15,014 nt of DNA from Candidatus Hodarchaeota archaeon (GTDB lineage: Archaea; Asgardarchaeota; Lokiarchaeia; Sigyniarchaeales; SOKP01), in assembly GCA_048886685.1 (NCBI GenBank), contig JBHLKM010000011.1, forward strand, positions 1-15,014, written 5' to 3'. The notes below the pieces were generated by a model. The model ran no database searches, was not told the origin of the DNA, and saw nothing but the letters and a program-made list of their open reading frames with translations. This document shows, in pieces, positions 1-15,014 of the stretch; the first letter of the stretch is position 1; every line of letters begins with the position of its first letter. Made by a program: the position numbers and the translations under genes.

Positions 1-411
1 AAAATTGATAAAATGTTAGATTTAATTATAGATGAGAACATTGTTAAATTCAGTTATCTTAATAAACTGCAACCAGATATCCCGAAGGAGGAAAAAGATT
101 TACAAACAGCAGAACTACTAGAAAATATTCTAAATGATATCTGTGATAAACTTTTTGACAGAGATATGAAACCAGCCTTAAAGAAATTTATAACCGAATA
201 CATCAACTTTTTATACTCAAAATTTCAAAAAGAATCTTATGCAGATAAATTAATTGATAAATTCAAAGGGTTAGCATTCCAGAATTTAATTAGTTTAAGT
301 TTGGATGATTATGAGAAAATAAAGAAAGAAAAAACCAAATTAACCTCGATTTTAAGAGATTATCCGAAATATGTTATTCTGGATGAAATAAAAAAAAAAT
401 TGAAAAAATAA
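1..411 (+). CDS. Hypothetical helical protein, probably the 3' end of a longer gene entering from the left edge
   Basis: The ORF track gives 13..411, but the frame is open from base 1 (AAA ATT GAT AAA ATG), so the true start may lie outside the window. Charged amphipathic sequence with no recognisable motif. Confidence 0.6.
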   Translation, partial: KIDKMLDLIIDENIVKFSYLNKLQPDIPKEEKDLQTAELLENILNDICDKLFDRDMKPALKKFITEYINFLYSKFQKESYADKLIDKFKGLAFQNLISLSLDDYEKIKKEKTKLTSILRDYPKYVILDEIKKKLKK

Positions 412-421
412 TTAAACTTTC

Positions 422-462
422 TATTCGAACTTTGCGAGAAGTTTCGAAGTTAAATCTAAAAA
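422..462 (+). promoter_or_regulatory. Conserved ~41-bp inverted-repeat element (copy 1) upstream of the Ubl gene
   Basis: tattcgaactttgcgagaagtttcgaagttaaatctaaaaa, with TTCGAA at 424-429 and 443-448. It matches the reverse complement of 9711-9751 at 36/41 positions and ends 47 nt before the Ubl ATG. Confidence 0.6.
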
Positions 463-509
463 TGATTTGTTGATATTATTTAATTATTTAAGAAAAAAAT
501 GAAAACAAA

Positions 510-764
510 ATGAGATTATCAGTAGAAGATACAAGAACTGGTAAGCGAATAAAGTTAGATGTGAAAGAACATCACATAATAGAACGTATTATAGAAATTG
601 TTGTTAAACATATGGGCTTTATTAGCTCAGAACAACGTTCTTATGCATTAGTCTATAAGGAGAAAGAGTTACCGAACGCGATAACTATTAAGGATGCAAT
701 CCATAAATTTGGTTTGAAAGAATATGATATTTTGATGCTTTGGACAAAAGTAATTGGAGGTTAA
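510..764 (+). CDS. Ubiquitin-like (beta-grasp) protein modifier with mature C-terminal Gly-Gly
   Basis: 84 aa ending VIGG-stop. TRTGKRIKLDV aligns with ubiquitin TLTGKTITLEV and LVYKEKEL with LIFAGKQL. Adjacent to E2, E1 and JAMM genes. Confidence 0.92.
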   Translation: MRLSVEDTRTGKRIKLDVKEHHIIERIIEIVVKHMGFISSEQRSYALVYKEKELPNAITIKDAIHKFGLKEYDILMLWTKVIGG

Positions 765-778
765 TAATAAAAGTTTCT

Positions 779-1354
779 TTACTCCTTAATAATAATTATT
801 TCATCCTCCTCATCAACTTTTTTCTCTTTTTCTTCTTCATCACTTTTAAAATTTCTTTTAAGTTCTTCCATTGAATTGTTTTTAAAGAACTCAGCAGCTT
901 CAATACAGATATTATATTGAAGTGGATCCTCAGGATTGGGGTTTTCTACTAATTTTTCTAATGATTTAACTGTAGTTTCTAAATCTGATAATCTTGACCA
1001 TTGTCTTAAAACATTTAAGCAAATATAACCAGTCCCTAGATTATTTGTATCTCTTAATTCAACGGGATGTATATTTGGGTGAAAAATATTTGAATACCAA
1101 GCAAAATCTATTCCCCCTGGATATGGAAAAGATCTGTTAATTTTAATGAAAATTCGGTGTTTTAATTGGGGTTTCACTTTGATTTTTTCCATTTTATTCA
1201 CTACAACAAATCCTAAGGCATTCAAATTGATCCATAATTCTACATTATTTTCTTGCCACCTTGCCGAATTTTCTTCAATGACTTTCATATGTTTTAGAAT
1301 TTTAATTTCATTATTTATTCGTTCTTTCCATATCTCAAATGGTAATTCCGGCAT
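779..1354 (-). CDS. Ubiquitin-conjugating enzyme E2 (UBC fold) with acidic C-terminal tail
   Basis: FPYP motif, FHPNI (H92-P93-N94), GYICLNVL with catalytic Cys112, downstream W, and NPNPEDPL. All are UBC signatures. Confidence 0.95.
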   Translation of the reverse strand: MPELPFEIWKERINNEIKILKHMKVIEENSARWQENNVELWINLNALGFVVVNKMEKIKVKPQLKHRIFIKINRSFPYPGGIDFAWYSNIFHPNIHPVELRDTNNLGTGYICLNVLRQWSRLSDLETTVKSLEKLVENPNPEDPLQYNICIEAAEFFKNNSMEELKRNFKSDEEEKEKKVDEEDEIIIIKE

Positions 1355-1383
1355 CTCTAATTCTTTAAAAATTATTATATATT

Positions 1384-2292
1384 TTAAATGATTTTATTCT
1401 TTGATTTTTTATATGAACAGGTCCAACAATTCGGATCTTTTAATTTATCAATAATAGTGAAATCATTGGTAAGTCCATTATATATTAGTTGTTTTCCAAT
1501 AATCGGTTCTCCTACACTAGGATTCCATTTTTTATGTTTTTTAAAGTAGTCAACACCGAGTAAAAATTTAAGAACTTGTTGTGATTGAATTCCCCCTATT
1601 ATCGAAGTAGTTGTTATGATCGTTGCTATTTTGCTTGTAGTTTCACCATCTTCGGATTTTATTTCTTCTCCAGTACATGAAAATTTTTTCCACATTAAAT
1701 CCAAATCTTGATTAGAAATCCCGCATTGTAAACAAGCTGAATCTCTTATCCCCGAATATACTGCCTGTACTGAACCAAAAAATCCATCTATTCCAGAATC
1801 AACAAAAGGAACTTCATAATAATATGCGTAATTATTTGCTTCTAATCGTGCTTCAAGATTATCTAAGCAAGAACATATTACATCACATTGGCTATAGAGA
1901 TTTTTATCTATCGCGTTTAAATCCTTTTTAATAGGAATTATGTTAACTTCAGGATTTAAGTCTTTACAAGCTTCCTTAATGACATCTGCTTTATATTCCT
2001 TATTGTCTGCAGCTTTAGGATTAAATAATACACCACGACTTAAATTTGAAGTTTCGATGAAATCATAATCAATTAATAATATTTTTCCTACGCCAGTTAG
2101 GGTTAAATTTTTTACAACTTCATTTCCAGTTGCTCCAGCACCAATAACCATGATCATAGCATTCGATATTTTAGCTTGATCCCATCCACTAATTCTTTTT
2201 TGACGATCAAATCTATCTGAATCTATATATTCTTCTCCAATAACATCAATATCATTATTTACTTTTTTACGCACCATATTTAATAAAATCAA
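1384..2292 (-). CDS. Ubiquitin-activating enzyme E1 (ThiF/MoeB-family adenylation domain with Zn site and candidate catalytic Cys)
   Basis: RFDRQ, GAGATG nucleotide-binding loop, DYD..SNLSR, CLDNLEAR, CxxC pairs (C187/C190 and C289/C292) and FSCT Cys206 in the crossover loop. TTG start; the ATG five codons later is an alternative. Confidence 0.95.
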   Translation of the reverse strand: MILLNMVRKKVNNDIDVIGEEYIDSDRFDRQKRISGWDQAKISNAMIMVIGAGATGNEVVKNLTLTGVGKILLIDYDFIETSNLSRGVLFNPKAADNKEYKADVIKEACKDLNPEVNIIPIKKDLNAIDKNLYSQCDVICSCLDNLEARLEANNYAYYYEVPFVDSGIDGFFGSVQAVYSGIRDSACLQCGISNQDLDLMWKKFSCTGEEIKSEDGETTSKIATIITTTSIIGGIQSQQVLKFLLGVDYFKKHKKWNPSVGEPIIGKQLIYNGLTNDFTIIDKLKDPNCWTCSYKKSKNKII

Positions 2293-2301
2293 ATTAATTA
2301 A

Positions 2302-2796
2302 TCAATTTGATGAGATAATTGCACTACTTACAGCTTTATATTTTTTGATAGAATCCTTGTTTAGTGTAAAAAATTTATGTACTTCTCGAATTGGATCTAC
2401 TACTAACGCAACTTGGTAAGATTCAGGAAAAAAAGATTCTTGGGTATGAATATCAGTTGCGGATAAAAAGCTACCTAAACCAATATGAGAATGCCACCAT
2501 CCTACCACTCGCAAATCTTTATCTTTTCTTCTGAGTTTTAATTTTTGAAATTCTTTTTCAAAATCTCCTGCGGTTCCCTCAATTTGGGACGTGATATATT
2601 TATCACTTCTTACTGCATTTTTTACATAAATTTGGTCTTTAATAATAATATATTTTTTGTTTTCCCATTTTAGTATCAAACCAATTAAATAACCAAAAAT
2701 TTCCCTATCTATATTTCTACATAATGTTTTAACTTGATTCAAAATATCTTCATGAATATATACGGGAAATACAAAATCCTTTTCGAGTGATGTCAA
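2302..2796 (-). CDS. JAMM/MPN+ metalloprotease (Rpn11/CSN5-like deubiquitylase)
   Basis: EIFGYLIG carries the catalytic Glu; VVGWWHSHIGLGSFLSATD is an intact HxHx7Sx2D motif; ALVVDP follows. Ends 9 nt from the E1 start on the same strand. Confidence 0.95.
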   Translation of the reverse strand: MTSLEKDFVFPVYIHEDILNQVKTLCRNIDREIFGYLIGLILKWENKKYIIIKDQIYVKNAVRSDKYITSQIEGTAGDFEKEFQKLKLRRKDKDLRVVGWWHSHIGLGSFLSATDIHTQESFFPESYQVALVVDPIREVHKFFTLNKDSIKKYKAVSSAIISSN

Positions 2797-2860
2797 TTTG
2801 ATAACTAAAATAATGATTGTTTTTATTGTTTTTTTTTCATTAAATTTAATTTACAATTTT

Positions 2861-2879
2861 GCCTACAAAAATGTTAGGC
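2861..2879. other. Short inverted repeat immediately after the GTPase stop codon
   Basis: GCCTA-caaaaatgt-TAGGC. No U-tract follows on the minus strand, so a terminator role is uncertain. Confidence 0.25.
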
Positions 2880-3881
2880 TTAATTTAATTTATTAAAGGT
2901 TTTCAATGCCCATTCTGCCTCTTTTTCATAACCCCCATCTTTATACAATTTAATTGCTTTTTCAATCAAATTCCTTATTTTTGGATAATATTTTTCCTTT
3001 CTATTAACCGCACCGGATTTATCAAAGTCTAAGCTAAGTTTTAAAGCTTCACAAAAAATTGAATTTCCTAAAACTAATAATTTTAATTTCTTATCAGAAA
3101 GATGTTCATTGGCTTGATTAAAGAAATTATTTGCTTCTAAAAATTTTTGTGTATTCTTGTATTCCTCAGCAAGTTCCATGCATTCCCATGCCTTACATAG
3201 ATAATATAATGCAGAAATTTCCTCTTGAGCTTGCTCAGAACAAAGTTTTTTGAATTTAGATGCTGCAATTGAAAACTTCTTTGCTGATGAGAAAAAATTT
3301 CCTTCTTTTTCAAATATTCTTGCTTCTTCTATTTCAGACAAGATATTTTTAATATCCTCTTTTTCAATGGAATGAAGTTTTTCCAGATTTGATATTTTGA
3401 GGATTTCCTTAATAATAGCAATTATACCATCCTTAGAATCTTCTTGAATCGCTGAAAATCCAAATGTTTTTTCCTTTAATATATTTTCAACTTTTTCTAC
3501 ACTAAAAGAAATTGATTTTCTATCTTGAAAGTTAGCAATAATATAAAAATCGATTTCAGGTAATTTGTCTCTTAATTCTAATAATAACTCTGCTGTATTT
3601 CCAATATTTCTCTCAGTTGAATCTGTAACAATACAGATAATATCAATAGATCGTAGTAATTCCCAATATGAAACAAAATTATTTGTTAAATCTCTTAAAT
3701 CTATTTCTCTTAAAATGCACGGTTCTACACCTTCTAAATAGGGTACATCAACTGGTTTCTGAAGAATCTCATTTAAATCATCATCTAATTCTAAAATAAT
3801 TTCACCTGGAAATAGATCTAATATTGTTGTTTTTCCCACACCGCTTTCTCCAGTAAGTAGTATATTAAGAGGATTTGCCAC
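2880..3881 (-). CDS. Ras-superfamily small GTPase-like domain (degenerate) fused to a C-terminal TPR/SNAP-like helical domain
   Basis: G1 GESGVGKTT; ICIVTDST strand; G4-like ANFQD; G5-like FSA; no DxxG. The C-terminal half has helical Ala/aromatic repeats (SAKKFSIAA, EANNFFNQA, AIKLYKDGG). GTG start. Confidence 0.8.
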   Translation of the reverse strand: MANPLNILLTGESGVGKTTILDLFPGEIILELDDDLNEILQKPVDVPYLEGVEPCILREIDLRDLTNNFVSYWELLRSIDIICIVTDSTERNIGNTAELLLELRDKLPEIDFYIIANFQDRKSISFSVEKVENILKEKTFGFSAIQEDSKDGIIAIIKEILKISNLEKLHSIEKEDIKNILSEIEEARIFEKEGNFFSSAKKFSIAASKFKKLCSEQAQEEISALYYLCKAWECMELAEEYKNTQKFLEANNFFNQANEHLSDKKLKLLVLGNSIFCEALKLSLDFDKSGAVNRKEKYYPKIRNLIEKAIKLYKDGGYEKEAEWALKTFNKLN

Positions 3882-3984
3882 TAATATTACCGAAATTTAC
3901 ATATATTTAATTAATTTAATTATAGTTAGCCATATTAATTAAAATGATTATAATTTTATTATTGAGAAATCTGAGTGAAACAAG

Positions 3985-4128
3985 CTGAATGAAAAAAAAA
4001 ATAATAATTTAAATGAACATGATTTAAAGCTCTTAAAAATGGAAGTAAAAGAAATTCCAGAACGTAAACCCCCAAATAATAAAATTATCCATTTTACTCT
4101 TGAAGATAATCATAAGGAAAATGAATAA
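3985..4128 (+). CDS. Possible 47-aa hydrophilic microprotein (CTG start), not in the ORF track
   Basis: Open frame CTG AAT GAA ... GAA TAA reads (M)NEKKNNNLNEHDLKLLKMEVKEIPERKPPNNKIIHFTLEDNHKENE. GAGTGA lies 6 nt upstream and the ORF fills an otherwise empty gap. Confidence 0.3.
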   Translation: MNEKKNNNLNEHDLKLLKMEVKEIPERKPPNNKIIHFTLEDNHKENE

Positions 4129-4159
4129 AAAATCTTTCATGAAATGATGAAAAAGAGCT

Positions 4160-4369
4160 TTACAATCTAATTGTAGAATATTCTTCTCTAATTTTTAGAT
4201 AAATTATTAGTCCTATGAAAAAGGGGATTAACCAAATCACCAAGATCCAAGTAAAGGCATTCATATCTCTTTTTTGAGCATCTTTATAAACCCATATTGT
4301 TATAAGGGACAAAATAGAAAAAGGAATTGTTAAAAAAATTATAAGAAGTAATATCAATAGATTAATCAT
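4160..4369 (-). CDS. Small membrane protein, PLDc N-terminal (PLDc_N-like) domain
   Basis: Hydrophobic helices around WVYKDAQKRDMN..W and GLIIYL, the typical pattern of this family. GGAG Shine-Dalgarno-like motif upstream. Confidence 0.75.
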   Translation of the reverse strand: MINLLILLLIIFLTIPFSILSLITIWVYKDAQKRDMNAFTWILVIWLIPFFIGLIIYLKIREEYSTIRL

Positions 4370-4398
4370 TAAGATCTCCTAATATATTTTTGTTTTAA

Positions 4399-5424
4399 TT
4401 AATTTTTCTTATTATTTAATTTATCAATTTTTACAGGCTTGGATTCGTCAAACGGGGTTTCACAAACCCAACACGTATTTTCTAAATTGGTTAATGCTTC
4501 TGAACACTTTACACAATAGAAAGCATTACATTTAGGACAAACATAATTTAATCTCGAAACCTTACTTTTACAAACTAAACATAATCCTTTTTCTCTGTAT
4601 AATTCAATTTCCTCAACTGTTATTGTTGAAGGTTTAGTAAAAATTTTTATAAAATCTTTAAGCTCTTCTTTAACAACCAGAGTTGAACTTTGTGGAGTTC
4701 GAATTTGCTTAGTTATATGAACTATTATATAGATAATTACAGCAACTAGAACAATAATCGAAATCCAAATTATTAATTGACTTATAATAAACAATGGTAA
4801 ATTTGTAAAAACTGTTAATCCTAAGAAAACTAAAATTCCTGCAATTGAGATTAAAACTAGCCAGTTAGCTACATGACTCGAAAAAAACTCCAGATCTATA
4901 ACTATTGGAAATATTGCAGTTAGAGCACCTATTACAATAAAAACTGATGGTATTGCTGGAGAGATAAGATTTAATTCTTTTATTGCCGTCGTTTCGAAAG
5001 CCCATCCTATCAAAACCATAGCAAATCCAATTGTCACTACTGAAGAAATTATTTGAAATTCTTTTTTTGATTTTATAGAAAACCAAATAAACATAATACT
5101 TAAAGATATTATACTTATAAGGATATAAACAAAAAAATATAAATAAAAATAAAGAAGAATATAGTTTTCAATTTCATAAGTTTGGATTATTATGCTTAAA
5201 TCTCCTGTATAAGTTCCTTCTAAGAAATAATCGGAAAAATAAAAGAATGTACGAGTTATAGCTATACTCAACCAAAAGCTTGCAAATCCATACATTAAAA
5301 CTTTTTCATGGATAATCTCTTTCTTACGACCATGGTCCAAATAAAATAAACTACTAACCATTAGTAAAATTATTGCTATACTAGAAAAAAAACGCTCAAT
5401 AGGATCAAAAACAATAAGAAGAAT
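4399..5424 (-). CDS. Multi-pass (6-7 TM) membrane protein with C-terminal C4C4 RING/PHD-like zinc finger
   Basis: The track ORF is 4399..5361; the frame extends 21 codons upstream to an ATT at 5424, behind GGTGAT. The C-terminus has CLVC-x10-CPKC-x4-CVKC-x10-CWVC (4462-4581). The start position is uncertain. Confidence 0.85.
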   Translation of the reverse strand: MLLIVFDPIERFFSSIAIILLMVSSLFYLDHGRKKEIIHEKVLMYGFASFWLSIAITRTFFYFSDYFLEGTYTGDLSIIIQTYEIENYILLYFYLYFFVYILISIISLSIMFIWFSIKSKKEFQIISSVVTIGFAMVLIGWAFETTAIKELNLISPAIPSVFIVIGALTAIFPIVIDLEFFSSHVANWLVLISIAGILVFLGLTVFTNLPLFIISQLIIWISIIVLVAVIIYIIVHITKQIRTPQSSTLVVKEELKDFIKIFTKPSTITVEEIELYREKGLCLVCKSKVSRLNYVCPKCNAFYCVKCSEALTNLENTCWVCETPFDESKPVKIDKLNNKKN

Positions 5425-5591
5425 TGTTTGAAATCACCGAGAAATGAGAATAATTAACTCTATAATAATTAGCTTATAAGAGATATCAATATAAAAAATT
5501 TTCTTCTTATATCTGAAGAATTATTTTAAATATCATTGTCATATATATAATTATTTAAAGAATAGTTTATTCCGGTACCATAGGTTTAACG

Positions 5592-6593
5592 ATGGCACAT
5601 AAATCTATAAAAACAATAATTATAATGGTTATTGTTTGTTTCAGTTTAATTTTTACTATCCCAATTGTTATCCTATCAACTACTCTTTCTCCCTATGGTA
5701 AAATTATTAAATCTATTCGATTCGATTATAAACCTTCGAGCCCTTCATTTATGGAAGAATTGAACATTAATGCGGATTTAGGGAATATTGAAATAAAATA
5801 TATCACTGAACCAGTAGATTATTGTGTAAGAATAAAAATAAATATTGAGATGATTGGTTCAAACTTAGCTGGAAAATCATATTTTGATTATTTTAATATT
5901 GTTTGGCAAAATACTAGCGGTATTGTAAATTTTACTATGAAGCTAAAAACAAATATAGACCACGTTGAAGTATTATCCGTAATAAAGAATGTTAACATAA
6001 CGGTAGCTCTTAAAGCAGATGTAATTTGTGATATAAATGCACTTATATATTTCCAAGGAAATGTTGGTATAACAGTTCCATGGAGGTTTACTATTGGTAA
6101 CATCTTAATAAATATTTCAAAAGGCGATATTAACTATTACTTTTCAAATTGTATTATAGAAGGAGAAATAACGGGAATTGTCCAAGAAACAGGGAGTATA
6201 AAATTAGAAACGAATAACGTTGAATACAAGAACAATAGTTTATGGACTCTTACTGCTGAAATTGGAAACATTGTTATAGAAATCAATCAAGATAAAACTA
6301 TGGGTGCGAATATAACTGGTACAGTCGTGACAAACATAGGAAATTATAGATTGGTTTATTTAGATAATAATGTGGATGTTGGTGCTCAATTTATATTATG
6401 TGCAAATCAAGATGATGTACCATTCCATCAAAAACTTACTGAAATCGTCGGATTTGAAGAGCCTGTGTTAAATGTTGTTGATGGAATTGATGTTTATACA
6501 TTAAACTCTAATGATTATCCGACATTAAATAATTATAATTTATCTTTTAGTTTACCAAATGGTTATTATGATATCGATCTTCAAAATAGTTGA
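5592..6593 (+). CDS. Membrane-anchored extracellular beta-strand-rich protein (DUF4097/adhesin-like)
   Basis: Single N-terminal hydrophobic helix followed by repeated units such as INADLGNIEI, INISKGDIN, LTAEIGNIVI and VVTNIGNYRL. Many N-x-S/T sequons. Confidence 0.7.
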   Translation: MAHKSIKTIIIMVIVCFSLIFTIPIVILSTTLSPYGKIIKSIRFDYKPSSPSFMEELNINADLGNIEIKYITEPVDYCVRIKINIEMIGSNLAGKSYFDYFNIVWQNTSGIVNFTMKLKTNIDHVEVLSVIKNVNITVALKADVICDINALIYFQGNVGITVPWRFTIGNILINISKGDINYYFSNCIIEGEITGIVQETGSIKLETNNVEYKNNSLWTLTAEIGNIVIEINQDKTMGANITGTVVTNIGNYRLVYLDNNVDVGAQFILCANQDDVPFHQKLTEIVGFEEPVLNVVDGIDVYTLNSNDYPTLNNYNLSFSLPNGYYDIDLQNS

Positions 6594-6675
6594 AAAGATT
6601 TAGTGTCCTTTGATTAGATGGAATTACTTTGTTGGTACAACTTCGCTAGAATATAATTAACAAGGTAAAATTTAT

Positions 6676-8496
6676 TTAATCCTTGAAATACATGTTTTTA
6701 TATTTTGAACAAAAATGATTAAATTGTAACCCCTTTACATTAGATCGATAAATGTTAAAATGATGTTTGCTATAAAGATAACACATTGGAAAAACCTCTT
6801 CAATTAACCTTTTTTGAATTTGGTAATATAATTCTTCCCTCACGGTTTCGTTAGTTTCTCCTATAGCTTCTTCCATCCTTTGCTGTGTTAGAGCGTCATT
6901 AACTTGACAATAATTTAAATCTAACGATTTATTTGAACATAAGATATTGATAATACTACTAGGATCATTAAAATTAGGAACAAAATTCATCCAGCCAATT
7001 TCAACCATGTTCAAGTGATAAGGAGGTATTTCCATATATATATTAAAATATTCTCCAATTGTTACATTGGCATCTACTACTTTGATACCTATTTGTTTTA
7101 AATTTTCCGTTAAAATAGCCAAAAGCGTATCAGAAAATGGTGATGGAATAGTTGTATAGTTGTATGTAACTAGGGGGGTCCCATCATCTACTAGCTTTCC
7201 CCATTCATTACCCACAGAAACATTATCATCAGCAGTTAAGGCTCCAGCTATTCCAGCCCAGTTAACGTCTTTTAGCGTTTGTCGCGCCATTGAAACATTA
7301 TAGTAAGGAATATCAATATTGGTAGTATTTGAATATAATATTCCTTCTGGTATGGGAGATTTAAGCCTTGTTCCATGACCATTTAACCATTTATCAATAA
7401 AAGCTGAGTAATTAAAAGCATATGAGATTGCTTTTCTCATAGTTACATTGAGTAATTCGTTGTTCATTATTAGATAACAAAAGACCGTAGCTGGGGGTCC
7501 TTCTTCCACTATAATATCAGGATGATTTATAAATGTGTCTAGGAGGTCTTTATCATAATAGATATTATTGACGTAGTCTGTATCCATTAATAACTCTACG
7601 TTTCCACTCAAAACTGAAAGATCTCCCGATAATATCGCATCATATCTAGCTTCATTAGTATCATAATTTTTGAATATTAATTTATCAATCTGGGGTTTGT
7701 CGCCCCAATAGTTTGGATTGGAAGATAATGTGGTATTTATACTAAAGGAAAAATTTATAATTGGATTATATACAAAGGTAGTTGAATCATAAATAAATGG
7801 ACCCGTTCCGATTATCTTTTCAGTTAGGTGATCAATAAAAAGATCACTTGGGGTGGAAGTAGGAGATAATATAAATGCAGTATGAGACGCTAATAATGCA
7901 GTGAGGGGAACATAGGGCTTATTTAATATAATCTTCACATTATAATCTCCATCGGATTCCGTCCTGTTTATAATTCGATTTTTATAATTCGTTCGATTCC
8001 CATCGGGAAATATCCAAAATTGTGCCTTCGTCCAATGCATTTTACCATTGTCGATTAAAGCGTATATCCTTTTAATATTCCATTGAACTGCTGCAGCATT
8101 AAATGCAGTTCCATCATGGAACTGAACCCCTTGTCTTAGTTCACATGTTAATTCTGTATAATTTCCATTCCATGTATGATTAATAGCAAGGTTATGAATT
8201 ACACGAGACTGTTCACCAGCAATGTTATGAGTAAATAATCCTTCAGCAGCTTGACTTATTATCTCATAATCAGTTGGAGCCCAAGTTTGAAGAGGATCAA
8301 TCCCAATACCTAAACCCATATATGACACATAAAGAATTTTTTTTTTTGGTATTTTTGTAAAAATAACTATTCCACCAATAATTCCTGCTATAGCTACAAC
8401 AGCAATTATTCCAAGACCTAAAATTGGTTTTTTCTTTAACAATCGGACTTCCTTTTTAGGAAGTTTTTTCTTTGGTGCTTTATGATCTATACTCAT
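6676..8496 (-). CDS. ABC transporter substrate-binding protein, family 5 (DppA/OppA-like), N-terminally membrane-anchored
   Basis: EGLF, LRQGVQFHDGTAFNAAAVQWN, GTGPF, NPNYWG, MRKAISYAFN, LKQIGIKV and REELYYQIQ are family-5 motifs. A basic stretch plus TM helix forms the N-terminus. Confidence 0.93.
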   Translation of the reverse strand: MSIDHKAPKKKLPKKEVRLLKKKPILGLGIIAVVAIAGIIGGIVIFTKIPKKKILYVSYMGLGIGIDPLQTWAPTDYEIISQAAEGLFTHNIAGEQSRVIHNLAINHTWNGNYTELTCELRQGVQFHDGTAFNAAAVQWNIKRIYALIDNGKMHWTKAQFWIFPDGNRTNYKNRIINRTESDGDYNVKIILNKPYVPLTALLASHTAFILSPTSTPSDLFIDHLTEKIIGTGPFIYDSTTFVYNPIINFSFSINTTLSSNPNYWGDKPQIDKLIFKNYDTNEARYDAILSGDLSVLSGNVELLMDTDYVNNIYYDKDLLDTFINHPDIIVEEGPPATVFCYLIMNNELLNVTMRKAISYAFNYSAFIDKWLNGHGTRLKSPIPEGILYSNTTNIDIPYYNVSMARQTLKDVNWAGIAGALTADDNVSVGNEWGKLVDDGTPLVTYNYTTIPSPFSDTLLAILTENLKQIGIKVVDANVTIGEYFNIYMEIPPYHLNMVEIGWMNFVPNFNDPSSIINILCSNKSLDLNYCQVNDALTQQRMEEAIGETNETVREELYYQIQKRLIEEVFPMCYLYSKHHFNIYRSNVKGLQFNHFCSKYKNMYFKD

Positions 8497-8740
8497 TTTA
8501 AGATATCCTTAGGTTATGTCTCATTAATATAATTGTTAATTTTTTATTTAGGCTTCAAATTTATAATATAAAATAATTTAGATGGATCCATAATTAAGGT
8601 TTTTGATTATTAATGGATTGCAATCTACAGAAAGTATAGATAACTGATTGTAAATCACCTTTATTTCAAACCAAGTAATGGATTTGATTAGGTTTCACTT
8701 AGTTTTTCCTATTATTTTAAGAAACTATTGATAAAAACAC

Positions 8741-8837
8741 AAAAATAAAAAAAAAGAGAGATAGAATAGGAGGAAAGAGTTTAGAAAAAAAGCATCTCGC
8801 ACACCCTGATCCAAACTAATAATCCTCCCCTTTCTAT
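8741..8837 (-). terminator. Long structured hairpin followed by a U-tract, downstream of the secreted-protein gene
   Basis: Minus-strand nested pairings ATAGAA/TTCTAT, GGAGGA/TCCTCC, AGTTTGG/CTAAACT (one GU) and AGGGTGT/ATGCTTT (GU-rich), followed by a T-run (plus-strand A-run 8741-8755). Confidence 0.5.
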
Positions 8838-8918
8838 AGTTTTTTTAGAATTCTTTGGAAAGAAAAATTTCACCCAAAATAGGCTCCCTGCAATTAGCAT
8901 TACTCCGATAAAATCTAT

Positions 8919-9659
8919 TTAATACAATTTTATGAAGTTGCAAGGCCATATTGGCCAAAATGGATCTATAAAATTATATCCCTTCTTTGCGGATCCATAC
9001 GTAGCTCCTACTACTTTTGCAACATCTCCAAGCTCTAAACCATTCCAGTCATTAACCATTTCTCCTTTACCTGTACCGATAAAGAGCACGCTTACAAACT
9101 CCAATCCAAACTCATACCACATAAGAGCATCAAAAGCAAGAGGCAAATATCCAGGTAGTATAACATACCCTGTCTCATCATCAAAGCCATCATCATCTAA
9201 CCATGGTACTAACCAAGGCGGCCATTCTTCTAAATCAACTATGAATCTTAACTGAAATATATAATCCATTTTCCCTACAAATAGTGTGATGATATTACTA
9301 GGATCAGGATCATATGTTTCGACTAGTACCGGCGCTCCTTTTACTCGTATGTGGACTGTTATCATATGTCTTCCATCAGGCAATTCTCTTTCAAGGATGT
9401 GTCCATGATAATCGCACTCCAATATAGATACGAAATTCCAATAAGGATCATATTCGCGATGTGGGCAGATTACTAACTGTTCTGAAGCCCAATATCCTAT
9501 ATGATCATTTAAAGGAGTTACGCCATCAACTGATATGAGCCAATCATCTTCGAGAGATCTTTTTATAGTACCGTGTCCCAGAACTGTAGGTAAAAAGCAA
9601 ATTACTAAGAGCCCTAGAGCTACACTTAATAAAATTTTTTTATTTTTCATTTTTTTCAT
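8919..9659 (-). CDS. Secreted hypothetical protein with signal peptide
   Basis: MKKMKNKK, a hydrophobic core, then TVLG as a likely cleavage region. AAGAGG lies directly before the first ATG. The mature part is rich in Trp, Pro and Asp; no family recognised. Confidence 0.8.
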   Translation of the reverse strand: MKKMKNKKILLSVALGLLVICFLPTVLGHGTIKRSLEDDWLISVDGVTPLNDHIGYWASEQLVICPHREYDPYWNFVSILECDYHGHILERELPDGRHMITVHIRVKGAPVLVETYDPDPSNIITLFVGKMDYIFQLRFIVDLEEWPPWLVPWLDDDGFDDETGYVILPGYLPLAFDALMWYEFGLEFVSVLFIGTGKGEMVNDWNGLELGDVAKVVGATYGSAKKGYNFIDPFWPIWPCNFIKLY

Positions 9660-9710
9660 CCTCTTTCTTTTTTTAAATTAGTGTTAACTGAAATTTAACA
9701 CACAAATTAA

Positions 9711-9751
9711 TTTTTAGATTTAGCTTCGAAACTTTACACAAAGCTCGAATA
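9711..9751 (-). promoter_or_regulatory. Conserved ~41-bp inverted-repeat element (copy 2) upstream of the secreted-protein gene
   Basis: The minus strand reads tattcgagctttgtgtaaagtttcgaagctaaatctaaaaa, 36/41 identical to 422-462. It ends 51 nt before the ATG at 9659. Confidence 0.6.
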
Positions 9752-10621: not shown

Positions 10622-10780
10622 TTAGTCTTTTTCATGGATTTCTGAAGGTTTTACACCATCAAACAATTCAAGTTTTAAGAACCTCTTCTCTTTTTTACAA
10701 TTAGGACAAAAGTAATAACCTGGTTCTTTATTCCTATAACTAAAACCACATTCCTTACATACTGCGTAAAACAAAGACAT
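10622..10780 (-). CDS. 52-aa Cys4 zinc-ribbon microprotein (paralog A), not in the ORF track
   Basis: Translated by hand: MSLFYAVCKECGFSYRNKEPGYYFCPNCKKEKRFLKLELFDGVKPSEIHEKD*. CxxC-x13-CxxC. Confidence 0.85.
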   Translation of the reverse strand: MSLFYAVCKECGFSYRNKEPGYYFCPNCKKEKRFLKLELFDGVKPSEIHEKD

Positions 10781-10807
10781 ATAATAAAAAAAATTATAGA
10801 TGATTAT

Positions 10808-10960
10808 TTAATTTATCTCGTGAAGTTCGTTTGGTTTCGCACCGCAAAAAGCTTCGAACTTGAAAAACTTCATTTCTTTATTACAATTAGGGCAGAAATA
10901 GGTACCAGGGTTCTTATTCTCAAATGAATACCCACATTCTTTACAAACAATCGTATTCAT
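10808..10960 (-). CDS. 50-aa Cys4 zinc-ribbon microprotein (paralog B), not in the ORF track
   Basis: Translated by hand: MNTIVCKECGYSFENKNPGTYFCPNCNKEMKFFKFEAFCGAKPNELHEIN*. 29/50 identical to paralog A without gaps. Confidence 0.85.
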   Translation of the reverse strand: MNTIVCKECGYSFENKNPGTYFCPNCNKEMKFFKFEAFCGAKPNELHEIN

Positions 10961-11143: not shown

Positions 11144-12190
11144 TTGATCTTCATGAAATCTGTCGAATGGGCTGGTTCTAAATTTGAAGTTAAAAATGGC
11201 TTCCTTGATTTAGGTCTCTTAGAAATTAAAAATATTGAGGAAATTATTGGCTTAGATAAATTAAAAGATCTTATTAATTTAGAACTTAGCTCTAATGAAA
11301 TCGTTGTAATAAGGGGGTTAGACAATCTAACAGAATTGGAGATTCTAAATTTAGGGAGCAATAAAATAAGAGAAATAAAAGGATTAGACAAACTTGAGAA
11401 TCTTAAAATCTTGCATTTAATAAGCAATGAAATTAAAGAACTTAAAGGATTGCAAAATTTAACTAATTTAAAAGAATTATATCTTAGAGGAAACCAAATT
11501 GAAGAGTTAAAAGGTTTAGAAAATCTTACTTCTCTTCAGAGATTAGATTTATCATGGAACAACATCTCAAAAATCCAAGGACTCGATAATTTGGGTAACC
11601 TCGAAGTTTTATGGATTGCAGGAAATCAATTGCAGAAAATTGAAAACTTAGATAATCAAAAGAATCTACAAGTTTTAAATGTAGCAGGAAATCAAATAAA
11701 AAGTATAGATGGATTTGAAAATTTGAAGAATTTAAAAAGTCTTTATCTTAACAATAATTTAATTTCAGAAATAAAAAATCTTGAAGCATTAGAAAATTTG
11801 GAAACGCTTTGGCTAAATTCAAACGAAATTTCAGAAATAAAGGGATTACGTAACTGCAAGGAATTAAAAATCTTAAATTTAAAACAAAATAAAATCAACC
11901 ATATTAAGGGTTTATATTCTCTCACAAATTTGGAGAATCTTTTTCTTTCAGAAAATAATATAGGTGAAATTAAAGGATTAGAACCACTCATAAAATTGGA
12001 AACACTTGATTTGGGCCAAAATAAGATAATTCAAGTTAAGGGTTTAGAATCTTTATTTAATTTAAAAGATTTATGGATTGCAGAGAATTTGATACCTCAA
12101 AAAATAATTGATCAATTGGGAGGTTTAGATTCTGGCGGGTGTGCAAATGAACCCTTAAAATTTGTTCAATATTGTCTTGTGAACCTTTAA
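11144..12190 (+). CDS. Leucine-rich repeat protein, SDS22-like 22-residue repeats
   Basis: About 12 complete LxxLxLxxNxIxxIxGLxxLxx repeats plus degenerate terminal ones. The start may be the ATG at 11153 rather than the TTG at 11144. Confidence 0.93.
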   Translation: MIFMKSVEWAGSKFEVKNGFLDLGLLEIKNIEEIIGLDKLKDLINLELSSNEIVVIRGLDNLTELEILNLGSNKIREIKGLDKLENLKILHLISNEIKELKGLQNLTNLKELYLRGNQIEELKGLENLTSLQRLDLSWNNISKIQGLDNLGNLEVLWIAGNQLQKIENLDNQKNLQVLNVAGNQIKSIDGFENLKNLKSLYLNNNLISEIKNLEALENLETLWLNSNEISEIKGLRNCKELKILNLKQNKINHIKGLYSLTNLENLFLSENNIGEIKGLEPLIKLETLDLGQNKIIQVKGLESLFNLKDLWIAENLIPQKIIDQLGGLDSGGCANEPLKFVQYCLVNL

Positions 12191-12581: not shown

Positions 12582-13835
12582 TTGATAGATATTAATCCTT
12601 TTGAAAGTGCGAAAAAAAAACTCGACATTGCAGCTGAAGTAATTGATTTAAATCCTAACACTCTTGAATATTTGAAAAAAGTAGAAAGATCTTTAATTGT
12701 ATCTATGCCTGTCATGATGGATGATGGTTCACTTGAAATTTTTGAAGGTTATAGAGTGCATCATTCAACCTTACGTGGACCTGCGAAAGGTGGTTTGAGA
12801 TATTCCCCAGATGTAACCTTGGATGAGATAAAAGCACTTGCTTTCTTAATGACATTTAAAACCAGTCTTTTAGGTTTACCTTTAGGAGGATCTAAGGGGG
12901 GAATCTGTGTAGACAGGAAGAAATTATCCTATAATGAGTTAAGAAAACTTACGAGAAGATATACTTCCGAAGTTCTAAATATGATCGGACCGGATATCGA
13001 TATTCTTGCTCCAGATATGAATACTGATGAGCAGATCATGGCCTGGATAATGGATACATACAGTATGAACAAGGGAAGGTCTGTTCCAGGAGTCGTAACT
13101 GGAAAACCAATTGAAATTGGAGGAACTGTAGGGAGAACCGAAGCCCCTGGGACAGGAATGTATTATATTCTCCAGTCTTTATGTGAAAGAGAAAATTTTA
13201 GTTTAACATCAAGTAAAGTAGCAATTCAGGGATTCGGAAAAGTAGGGAGAGTAGTTGCTCAAATATTAAATGATGTTGGTTGTAAAATCATCGCCATCAC
13301 AGATTCAGAAGGAGGAATTCATTCTGAGAAAGGTTTAAACATTAATAAACTAATTAGTTGGAAATTACAAGGTAATTCATTGAAGGATTATAAAGAAAAC
13401 ACTGTTAAAATTATTACAAACAAAGACTTATTCAGAACGAAGTGTGACATTCTTATCCCCGCAGCAACAGAAAATCAGATTTTTAGTGGGAATGCAAATG
13501 AAATTGATTGCCATATTATCTTAGAGGGTGCTAATAGCCCTACAACATCGAAAGCAGACGCTATTTTAAATGAAAAAGGGATAATTGTAATTCCAGATAT
13601 TCTAGCAAATGCAGGTGGTTTATCTGTTTCCTATTTTGAATACATTCAAGACATACATTCATACTTTTGGAACCTTGAAAGAGTAAATAATGAAATGAAA
13701 CGAATTTTACTTAGAGCTTTTGAATTCATTCTAAACTTATCAAGCGATAGAGAGATATCATATCGTACTGCTGCTTATGCAATAGGAGCAGAAAGATTAG
13801 CTAAAGCACATGAATTGAGGGGGTTATTTCCATGA
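12582..13835 (+). CDS. gdhA: Glutamate dehydrogenase (Glu/Leu/Phe/Val dehydrogenase family), copy 1
   Basis: GPAKGGLRY, MTFK, LPLGGSKGG, APDMNT, VTGKP, QGFGKVG, EGAN, PDILANAGG and SYFEY. TTG start. Confidence 0.95.
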   Translation: MIDINPFESAKKKLDIAAEVIDLNPNTLEYLKKVERSLIVSMPVMMDDGSLEIFEGYRVHHSTLRGPAKGGLRYSPDVTLDEIKALAFLMTFKTSLLGLPLGGSKGGICVDRKKLSYNELRKLTRRYTSEVLNMIGPDIDILAPDMNTDEQIMAWIMDTYSMNKGRSVPGVVTGKPIEIGGTVGRTEAPGTGMYYILQSLCERENFSLTSSKVAIQGFGKVGRVVAQILNDVGCKIIAITDSEGGIHSEKGLNINKLISWKLQGNSLKDYKENTVKIITNKDLFRTKCDILIPAATENQIFSGNANEIDCHIILEGANSPTTSKADAILNEKGIIVIPDILANAGGLSVSYFEYIQDIHSYFWNLERVNNEMKRILLRAFEFILNLSSDREISYRTAAYAIGAERLAKAHELRGLFP

Positions 13836-14395
13836 AGTTAATGAAAATTTATTTGAAATTTAATAGAATTCTAAAGGTGAAAAATTATAGAATTAAATCC
13901 ATTTGAAGTAGCAAAAAAACAAATTGATATTGTAGCAGAAGAAATGGGATTAGATCCTAATGTCACTAAATTTCTTAAAAGGGTTGAAAGAGCTTTAATA
14001 GTGAGCATTCCAATTATTATGGATGATGGCTCACTTCAAATTTTTGAAGGATATCGGGTTCAACATTCAACTGTGCGAGGACCAGGAAAGGGAGGTATGA
14101 GATTTGCTCCTAATGTCAACCTCAATGAAGTTAAAGCATTGGCTACATGGATGACTTGGAAGTGTAGTCTTTTAAAATTACCATTAGGAGGTGCTAAAGG
14201 AGGAATATGCGTAAATCCAAGAGAATTATCAAGAAATGAACTAGAAAAACTGACAAGAAGATTTACAACTGAGATAATAAATATTATCGGACCTGACATA
14301 GATGTACCCGCTCCAGATGTTAATACAAATGCTCAGATCATGGCCTGGATAATGGATACATACAGTATGAACAAGGGAAGATCTGTTCCAGGAGT
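13032..14395 (+). repeat. Direct repeat between gdh paralogs: 13032-13093 and 14334-14395 (61/62 identical, 47 bp perfect)
   Basis: cagatcatggcctggataatggatacatacagtatgaacaagggaag is identical in both genes, followed by one mismatch and tctgttccaggagt. The offset is 1302 nt. Confidence 0.9.
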
Positions 14396-15014
14396 AGTGA
14401 CTGGAAAACCTATAGAGATAGGAGGATCAGTAGGTAGAAATTCAGCCACAGGAATGGGTTTATATTTTGTAATTGATACCATGTGTGAAAAACTAAATAT
14501 TAAATTAGAATCTCAAACCATTATTATTCAAGGCTTCGGTAACGTAGGGGGGTGGATTGCCAAGCTATTATATGACCGGGGTTGTAAAATATTAGCTGTT
14601 TCAGATATCTCTGGTGGCCTATATCATTCTGAAGGATTAGAAATCAATAAATTATTAGAATGGACACGGGAAGGAAATTATTTGAAAGATTATAAGGATG
14701 ATAGATATAAACTTATTACTAACTCTGAATTGTTAACAACAGAATGCGATATATTAATACCAGCAGCTCTTGAAAATCAAATTACAAAAGAAAATGCGAA
14801 TAATATTAATTGTAAAATTGTATTAGAAGGCGCTAATGGCCCTACTACACCTGAAGCAGATCAAATTCTATTTGATAAAGGGATACATGTAATTCCAGAT
14901 ATTCTTGCGAATGCTGGAGGTGTATGTGTCTCATATTTTGAATATGTCCAAGATATTCATGCCTATTTTTGGGATTTAGACAGAATTAATGAAGAGTTAA
15001 AAAGGATTATGATT
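13884..15014 (+). CDS. gdhA: Glutamate dehydrogenase, copy 2 (3'-truncated by the window end; absent from the ORF track)
   Basis: The frame reads IELNPFEVAKKQ...GPGKGGMRF...MTWKC...GGAKGG...PAPDVNT...GRNSATG...QGFGNVG...EGANGP...PDILANAGG...SYFEY to the edge. The proposed start is ATT 13884; the first ATG is at 13944. Confidence 0.93.
   Translation, partial: MIELNPFEVAKKQIDIVAEEMGLDPNVTKFLKRVERALIVSIPIIMDDGSLQIFEGYRVQHSTVRGPGKGGMRFAPNVNLNEVKALATWMTWKCSLLKLPLGGAKGGICVNPRELSRNELEKLTRRFTTEIINIIGPDIDVPAPDVNTNAQIMAWIMDTYSMNKGRSVPGVVTGKPIEIGGSVGRNSATGMGLYFVIDTMCEKLNIKLESQTIIIQGFGNVGGWIAKLLYDRGCKILAVSDISGGLYHSEGLEINKLLEWTREGNYLKDYKDDRYKLITNSELLTTECDILIPAALENQITKENANNINCKIVLEGANGPTTPEADQILFDKGIHVIPDILANAGGVCVSYFEYVQDIHAYFWDLDRINEELKRIMI

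Follow-up and report, generated by a model that had tools for sequence, protein, structure and literature searches.

A putative activator-dependent promoter element upstream of a ubiquitin-like modifier gene and exported-protein genes in a Candidatus Hodarchaeota archaeon

Comparison with known systems

The regulator TFB-RF1 (PF1088) of Pyrococcus furiosus has its site, TCTG-N5-CAGA, just upstream of the TFB recognition element (BRE) and the TATA box (PMC5937170). The present study deals with an element of about 41 bp in a 15,014-nt stretch of DNA (hereafter the window; contig JBHLKM010000011.1 of assembly GCA_048886685.1, Candidatus Hodarchaeota archaeon), where it stands upstream of a gene for a ubiquitin-like modifier (Ubl) and again upstream of a gene for an exported protein. 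We think that the element is probably an activator-dependent archaeal promoter, read by an adjacent tandem winged-helix protein that lacks tetratricopeptide repeats (TPR), and that it controls a small regulon of Ubl and exported proteins.

The present locus resembles the TFB-RF1 system in its palindromic operator directly before the BRE and TATA box, in its non-consensus core, in its small regulon beside the regulator, and in its membrane or export targets. That is, an operator directly upstream of the BRE combined with a weak core is the TFB-RF1 geometry, and we therefore read the element as one of activation. The archaeal activators Ptr2 and EarA have a comparable promoter geometry, and an operator beside a weak promoter is an ordinary kind of element. 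Unlike TFB-RF1, the present system has another consensus, a site of 26 bp and a predicted binding protein of 447 aa with two or three winged helix-turn-helix (wHTH) domains. The weak part of the core is the TATA-like box here, whereas it is the BRE in TFB-RF1 promoters.

The peptide-sensing RRNPP regulators of Bacillota, such as Rgg/SHP and PlcR/PapR, combine an HTH_3 DNA-binding domain with TPR. The long paralogs of the present regulator resemble them in combining DNA-binding with TPR and in facing tiny divergent open reading frames (ORFs) of 23-30 codons. In contrast, the short regulator has neither TPR nor an adjacent micropeptide gene, the domains are wHTH and not HTH_3, and the micro-ORFs face the long paralogs only. 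In eukaryotes, the heat-shock element (TTC-nn-GAA, in arrays) lies upstream of polyubiquitin genes. There a winged-helix factor induces the modifier gene apart from the enzymes, as is proposed here, and TTC and GAA triplets are shared, but this is an analogy only, and no homology was found. A reading of the element as heat-shock-like was rejected, because TTCGAA has no spacer here.

As for the modifier itself, an operon known from Caldiarchaeum subterraneum and Asgard archaea contains the genes for ubiquitin, E1, E2 and a small RING protein together with Rpn11 (PMC5654768). The genes for Ubl, E1, E2 and a JAB protein are clustered in the present locus as well. However, the Ubl of the present genome ends in GG without a pro-peptide, has its own, probably regulated promoter and is opposed to the E2-E1-JAB genes, and the candidate RING protein passes the membrane several times instead of being small and soluble. 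We found no description of this regulator family, of its motif, or of the transcriptional control of Asgard Ubl genes in the literature, of which our coverage was incomplete. The control of eukaryote-like genes in Asgard archaea is almost unstudied, and the present locus offers a specific candidate regulator, together with its 26-bp site, and predicts where the promoter of a Ubl gene lies.

Structure and distribution of the element

Copy 1 of the element (422-462, + strand) and copy 2 (9711-9751, - strand) agree in 36 of their 41 nucleotides. Of the five mismatches, three fall inside the N13 spacer, and both copies are followed by 'atttgt'. All these observations, which had been made in an earlier note on this DNA, were reproduced. 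The same pair was the longest inverted match in the window by repeat search (47 nt at 85%), whereas the best 41-mer match in four Markov-shuffled windows was only 30-31.

In the whole genome (4.4 Mb, 31% GC; its contigs are numbered C1 and so on), whose close relatives are Promethearchaeia (Lokiarchaeia), just two further full copies were found. These copies, at C4:1236 and C4:2706, have 7-9 mismatches, and each has an additional operator-only unit 44 bp upstream. The next-best matches have 11-13 mismatches. Both the window and contig C4 open with the same 77 bases, in reverse-complement orientation to each other. The window and C4 therefore join, and all four copies, which are all intergenic, lie within 12.5 kb in one island around the winged-helix gene. 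Thus, the Ubl gene and the exported-protein gene 9.3 kb away, which the earlier note had called unrelated, are not independent loci. The proposal of a regulon that includes the Ubl gene is supported, but the regulon is local, with four copies in one island, and not genome-wide.

The operator is an imperfect palindrome, TTCGAACTT-N6-AAGTTYC, extended to CGAAG. In copy 1 it occupies 424-449 (+), with the left arm at 424-432, the variable N6, the inner right arm at 439-445 and the extension up to 449. In copy 2 it occupies 9724-9749 (-). The operator is followed by AAAT-CTAAAAAT, which we regard as a BRE-like run with a weak TATA-like box (copy 1, 450-463 (+), with CTAAAAAT at 456-463; copy 2, 9710-9723 (-), with its C at 9717). 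This C is invariant in 65 of 65 sites, and the conservation of the box is above the expectation for an AT-rich flank. The core that the earlier note had described, TTCGA(A/G)-N13-TTCGAA, is present here. At the level of the family, however, the dyad is TTCGAACTT-N6-AAGTT, and the second TTCGAA is created by the CGAAG extension of the subfamily.

The gap to the ATG is 47 nt for copy 1 (ATG at 510) and 51 nt for copy 2 (ATG at 9659). The same orientation and the near-equal distances were correctly noted before, but the near-equality is partly incidental, because the distance from the box to the ATG varies from 47 to 157 nt among relatives. In contrast, an initiator-like motif keeps a constant distance: T[AG][AG]C occurs at +30/+31 from the C of the TATA-like box in 30 of 41 exported-gene promoters. 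From this spacing, transcription from copy 2 is predicted to start near 9685, within the initiator-like TTAAC at 9683-9687 (-), giving a leader of 26 nt. Several Ubl genes without the operator have AAATTTAAAAAT, a T-version of the box, at -63 to -68, and by eye this sequence resembles the tRNA promoters of the present genome.

We then searched 120 genomes of the order for the pattern, using the reversed pattern as a control. The element was found in 22 of them, in two genera, and mostly a single locus held 2-5 copies. No genome had the reversed pattern. The short regulator occurs in 17 genomes, all of which are motif-positive, and in 0 of the 98 motif-less genomes. The site lies upstream of a same-strand gene for Ubl or an exported protein in 61 of 67 cases (Ubl, 19; beta-helix exported protein, 14 + 2; 246-aa family, 13 + 1; third exported family, 12), and the target genes encode 84-460 aa. 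Downstream of the other six sites there is the remnant of a deleted gene, a Ubl pseudogene, a RING gene at a distance of 217 nt, or no gene. The copies hold a fixed orientation and position upstream of genes, which is in line with the regulon proposed in the earlier note. In a held-out test, the element was present in four of five independent contigs carrying homologs of the 246-aa protein; the fifth has an operator of the paralog type. At this last locus (L170:7840-8000), the paralog-type operator replaces the element, which is a promoter swap between regulons.

Among 43 Ubl homologs scored, 21 have the element and 22 do not. The two groups lie on the two sides of one branch (support 86/87, not firm), so that a single gain or a single loss suffices. 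Conservation of the motif upstream of Ubl is thus seen in one clade of the orthologs. The exported genes are swapped between slots among relatives, and some slots are empty. The flank comparison showed that the leader downstream of the element stays alike even where the gene differs, meaning that whole promoters were duplicated and genes were swapped behind them. Empty or gutted cassettes were seen at L067:7805-8030, at L083:9713 and 9897, and at L081:9843; in these, the element runs straight into the 3' hairpin described below, two elements stand without a gene, or the body of the gene has been deleted so that its signal peptide runs into the hairpin. The regulon belongs to some Loki-type Asgard archaea, and its set of exported genes changes between genomes.

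The winged-helix protein and the alternative explanations

The C-terminal third of the putative regulator is encoded at 1-411 (+) of the window, with its stop 13 nt before copy 1, and the remainder of its approximately 447 aa is encoded on C4. It has Pfam matches to HTH_45/HTH_34. Its AF2 model shows two MarR/PadR-like wHTH domains (Z of about 10) and, besides these, a further unit of wHTH-like element order and a tail of helices; it has no recombinase fold. The top Foldseek match, RPC62 (E 7e-4, TM 0.14), was set aside because it reflects the tandem wHTH only. A homodimer prediction gave a score of 0.29, which is no answer and was counted neither way. A profile search found no TPR in the short protein, whereas the long paralogs do have TPR. 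In the tree, the short proteins (about 450 aa) stand on one side of a branch with 100/100 support, and the TPR-tailed paralogs of 630-1000 aa, which are present in all genomes of the genus, stand on the other.

The regulator appears to start at a codon other than ATG. In 21 of 21 copies the conserved N-terminus is reached only or best from ATT (14), ATC (6) or ATA (1), which lies 10 nt behind GGTG, a normal spacing in the present genome; gene callers cut the short regulator inside the first wHTH helix. The probable start in the present genome is ATC at C4:1010. The long paralogs mostly start with ATG. The constant non-ATG start fits selection for a low level of an activator that would have no sensor. 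Given this start and the absence of a TPR sensor tail, the output is probably set by the low amount of the regulator itself or by a partner, and not by a TPR ligand.

Since the regulator and its sites share one island, their co-occurrence alone proves little. The promoters of the long paralogs, which are enriched for a related palindrome, are unlinked to the island and carry the same operator, and this removes the confounding effect of linkage. We made a matrix from the arms only (operator positions -1 to 8 and 14 to 20), and it found a site in 25 of 38 promoters of the unlinked TPR-bearing paralogs, against a background of 2%. When these promoters are read towards the divergent gene, AAAA-CTATATA, which was not part of the matrix, lies at the exact offset of AAAT-CTAAAAAT in the element; the distance from the operator start to the C of the box is 32 nt in both. 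In the reverse test, a matrix was built from promoters of the paralogs in other genomes; it found 13 sites in the present genome, all intergenic, including the four copies of the element. Of 40 genomes in the genus, 31 have the shared pattern, against 1 in the control. These tests in both directions indicate that the element is the version of a family-wide operator that is specific to one subfamily, to which CGAAG has been added and in which the TATA-like box is poorer. They also define, throughout the genus, a class of promoters in which an operator stands at a fixed spacing from a C-type TATA, and which serves an expanded family of regulators. The recognition helices are nearly identical between the short regulator and the long paralogs.

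From these sequence comparisons, it is very probable that the regulator binds the element, and probable that it activates rather than represses. The element would then be a promoter module of operator and weak core, and not an RNA hairpin, a mobile end or a recombination site. The idea of a shared operator or promoter element, raised in the earlier note, is supported by the fixed orientation and position, by the cognate regulator and by the clade-level conservation upstream of Ubl.

We propose that the short regulator binds the palindrome and the CGAAG abutting the BRE-like run and the poor TATA box, and that the bound protein recruits TFB/TBP, so that transcription would start about 32 nt downstream of the C of the box. 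One regulator may thus turn on the Ubl gene along with exported or surface proteins, two to four in number and interchangeable, and the sites in its own divergent promoter would provide feedback. The genes for E1, E2, JAB and the membrane RING protein appear to lie outside the regulon, which suggests that tagging is set by the supply of the modifier. That is, the modifier and not the enzymes is indicated as the regulated part, and the Ubl system is tied to exported surface proteins. Tentatively, the programme could serve to remodel the cell surface or to scavenge, with turnover at the membrane that depends on the Ubl.

If there is a feedback loop on the regulator, its obvious candidate members are the linked membrane RING, the GTPase-like protein and the Ubl enzymes. 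In a closed circuit, the membrane RING would sense a cue from outside the cell; together with the GTPase-like protein and E1/E2/JAB, it would tag or untag the activator or its inhibitor, and the activator would induce surface proteins and more Ubl. We consider this circuit improbable. If it is true, a tagging loop replaces the TPR sensor of the paralogs, and in a prokaryote related to eukaryotes a transcription factor is controlled, with feedback, in a ubiquitin-like manner.

Several points weigh against the activator hypothesis. Five motif-positive genomes have no short regulator in view, two of them with the site at a contig end. The co-occurrence counts are overstated, because regulator and sites lie in one island and the genomes are kin. 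Among the element-bearing promoters compared, those of Ubl have no clear initiator motif. Gene starts and tRNA promoters gave no clean genome-wide TATA consensus, the DNA with 69% AT being too noisy. The long paralogs recognize nearly the same arms and could cross-bind; with the family matrix the copies of the element score 17-26 bits, and the cognate sites up to 40. Finally, the extension of the operator ends 1-5 nt from the BRE, which would fit repression too.

In a model of repression, the same protein would bind the same operator against the BRE and block TFB until a signal releases it. MarR/PadR-type proteins repress in this manner until released, the wHTH domains of the regulator match these folds, and the CGAAG extension touches the edge of the BRE. 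A repressed promoter is expected to have a good core, however, and the TATA-like box is uniformly poor with its C invariant in 65/65 sites. A repressor site is also expected over the TATA box or the start, but the operator lies entirely upstream of the box. Moreover, the targets decay where the regulator is missing: decay of the site or loss of its gene is frequent in its absence (G021, G105, G134), and a weak site lies upstream of a Ubl pseudogene. For these reasons we regard repression as unlikely.

The near-identity of operator arms and recognition helices, together with the presence of long paralogs in all genomes of the genus, could also mean that the long TPR-bearing paralogs are the main readers of the site, with which the short protein competes or which it antagonizes. 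This is quite improbable, because the extended site occurs almost only where the short protein occurs, and the sites of the paralogs lack the T at +8, the CGAAG and AAAT-CTAAAAAT.

A site for site-specific recombination (loxP/dif/attC-like), which shuffles cassettes or inverts the 9.3-kb segment, would account for the swapping of exported genes, the empty slots and the inverted copies in the window, and the arms look loxP-like. Yet the dyad centre does not coincide with the variable 8 nt, and column conservation differs between the two arms; loxP-like and dif-like readings fail on arm symmetry. The genome has one tyrosine recombinase (PF00589), on another contig, no resolvase (PF00239) was found in it, and the conserved neighbour folds as wHTH. 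The flank comparison found no break of identity or crossover at the element, and the same arms occur in unlinked promoters. We give recombination very little credence.

Hardly credible, too, are a hairpin in a leader RNA and an origin as a small dispersed repeat or as the end of a mobile element, all raised in the earlier note. The hairpin has a median fold energy of -5.1 kcal/mol (z -1.6), but pairing at the variable columns is 0.40 against an independent expectation of 0.44, with no covariation across 65 sites, A-C mismatches in 17/65 sites, no relevant match in an Rfam scan and a position upstream of the inferred transcription start, and the repeat is contradicted by the non-random placement upstream of genes in a single island.

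The island and other observations

The island begins with genes for an exported protein, a peptide-binding protein, an exported protein with the element and a beta-helix exported protein with the element, followed by the divergent tandem winged-helix gene, the element and the Ubl gene. The Ubl gene (510-764, +) is the target of copy 1 and encodes 84 aa ending in GG, with weak ubiquitin/NEDD8 matches. A 4-codon upstream ORF (499-513, +; ATG at 499) has a stop that overlaps the Ubl ATG, and likewise in G099 and G119. Convergent with Ubl are the genes for E2 (779-1354), E1/ThiF (1384-2292) and JAB (2302-2796), all on the - strand, which form an operon (779-2796) without an element upstream. Conserved neighbours on the same strand, which normally lack the element, encode a degenerate small GTPase with a helical tail (2880-3881), a membrane protein of 69 aa (4160-4369), and a multi-pass membrane protein with a C-terminal C4C4 RING-like finger (4399-5361), an ortholog of which matches zf-C3HC4_3 (E 0.001).

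At the far end is a second exported/peptide-binding/exported block, which closes with the element at 9749. It contains an exported protein (5592-6593, +), a family-5 peptide-binding protein (6676-8496, -) and the target of copy 2 (8919-9659, -); C4 carries a duplicate of the part at 5592-8496, with a DNA identity of about 65%. The target of copy 2 is an exported protein of 246 aa with a signal peptide and a beta-rich fold (pLDDT 87.5). It has no Pfam match, no Atlas match and no clear fold match (best structural Z 5.7), and therefore no function was given to it.

On the 3' side of this gene is a long imperfect hairpin with a T-run (8761-8837, -; -27 kcal/mol), probably a terminator or a 3' stabilizer. 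Its outer stem (ATAGAA..GGAGGA / TCCTCC..TTCTAT) is conserved, and the inside of about 10-50 nt is variable, often GGCTTCTCGAATGACC. The hairpin stands behind most exported genes of the regulon in many relatives, and the pattern has four copies in the present genome (control, 0), the others being at G000 C4:2476, C4:3484 and C37:160-234. A conserved small ORF across the hairpin was rejected, because its frame is broken in five of six scored copies.

Paralog-type operators drive ORFs of 23-30 or 63-95 codons (G000 C2:80897, C9:123680, C5:253497 and C7:70401; L096-L135), and one peptide family among these tiny ORFs is conserved across genomes. In G005, truncated extra copies of the regulator stand beside additional elements (L065:6817-7572; L064:9041-9451), and a distance of about 940 kb separates one of them from the main island. 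The window also contains two tandem, mutually similar zinc-ribbon ORFs of 50-52 aa (CxxC...CxxC; 10622-10960, -), a pair found in L171 too. A leucine-rich-repeat gene of 348 aa (11144-12190) lies ahead of two tandem glutamate-dehydrogenase-like genes (12582-15014, +) with 69% DNA identity over 300 nt. In addition, ARAGORN called a tRNA-SeC at G000 C1:221073-221165.

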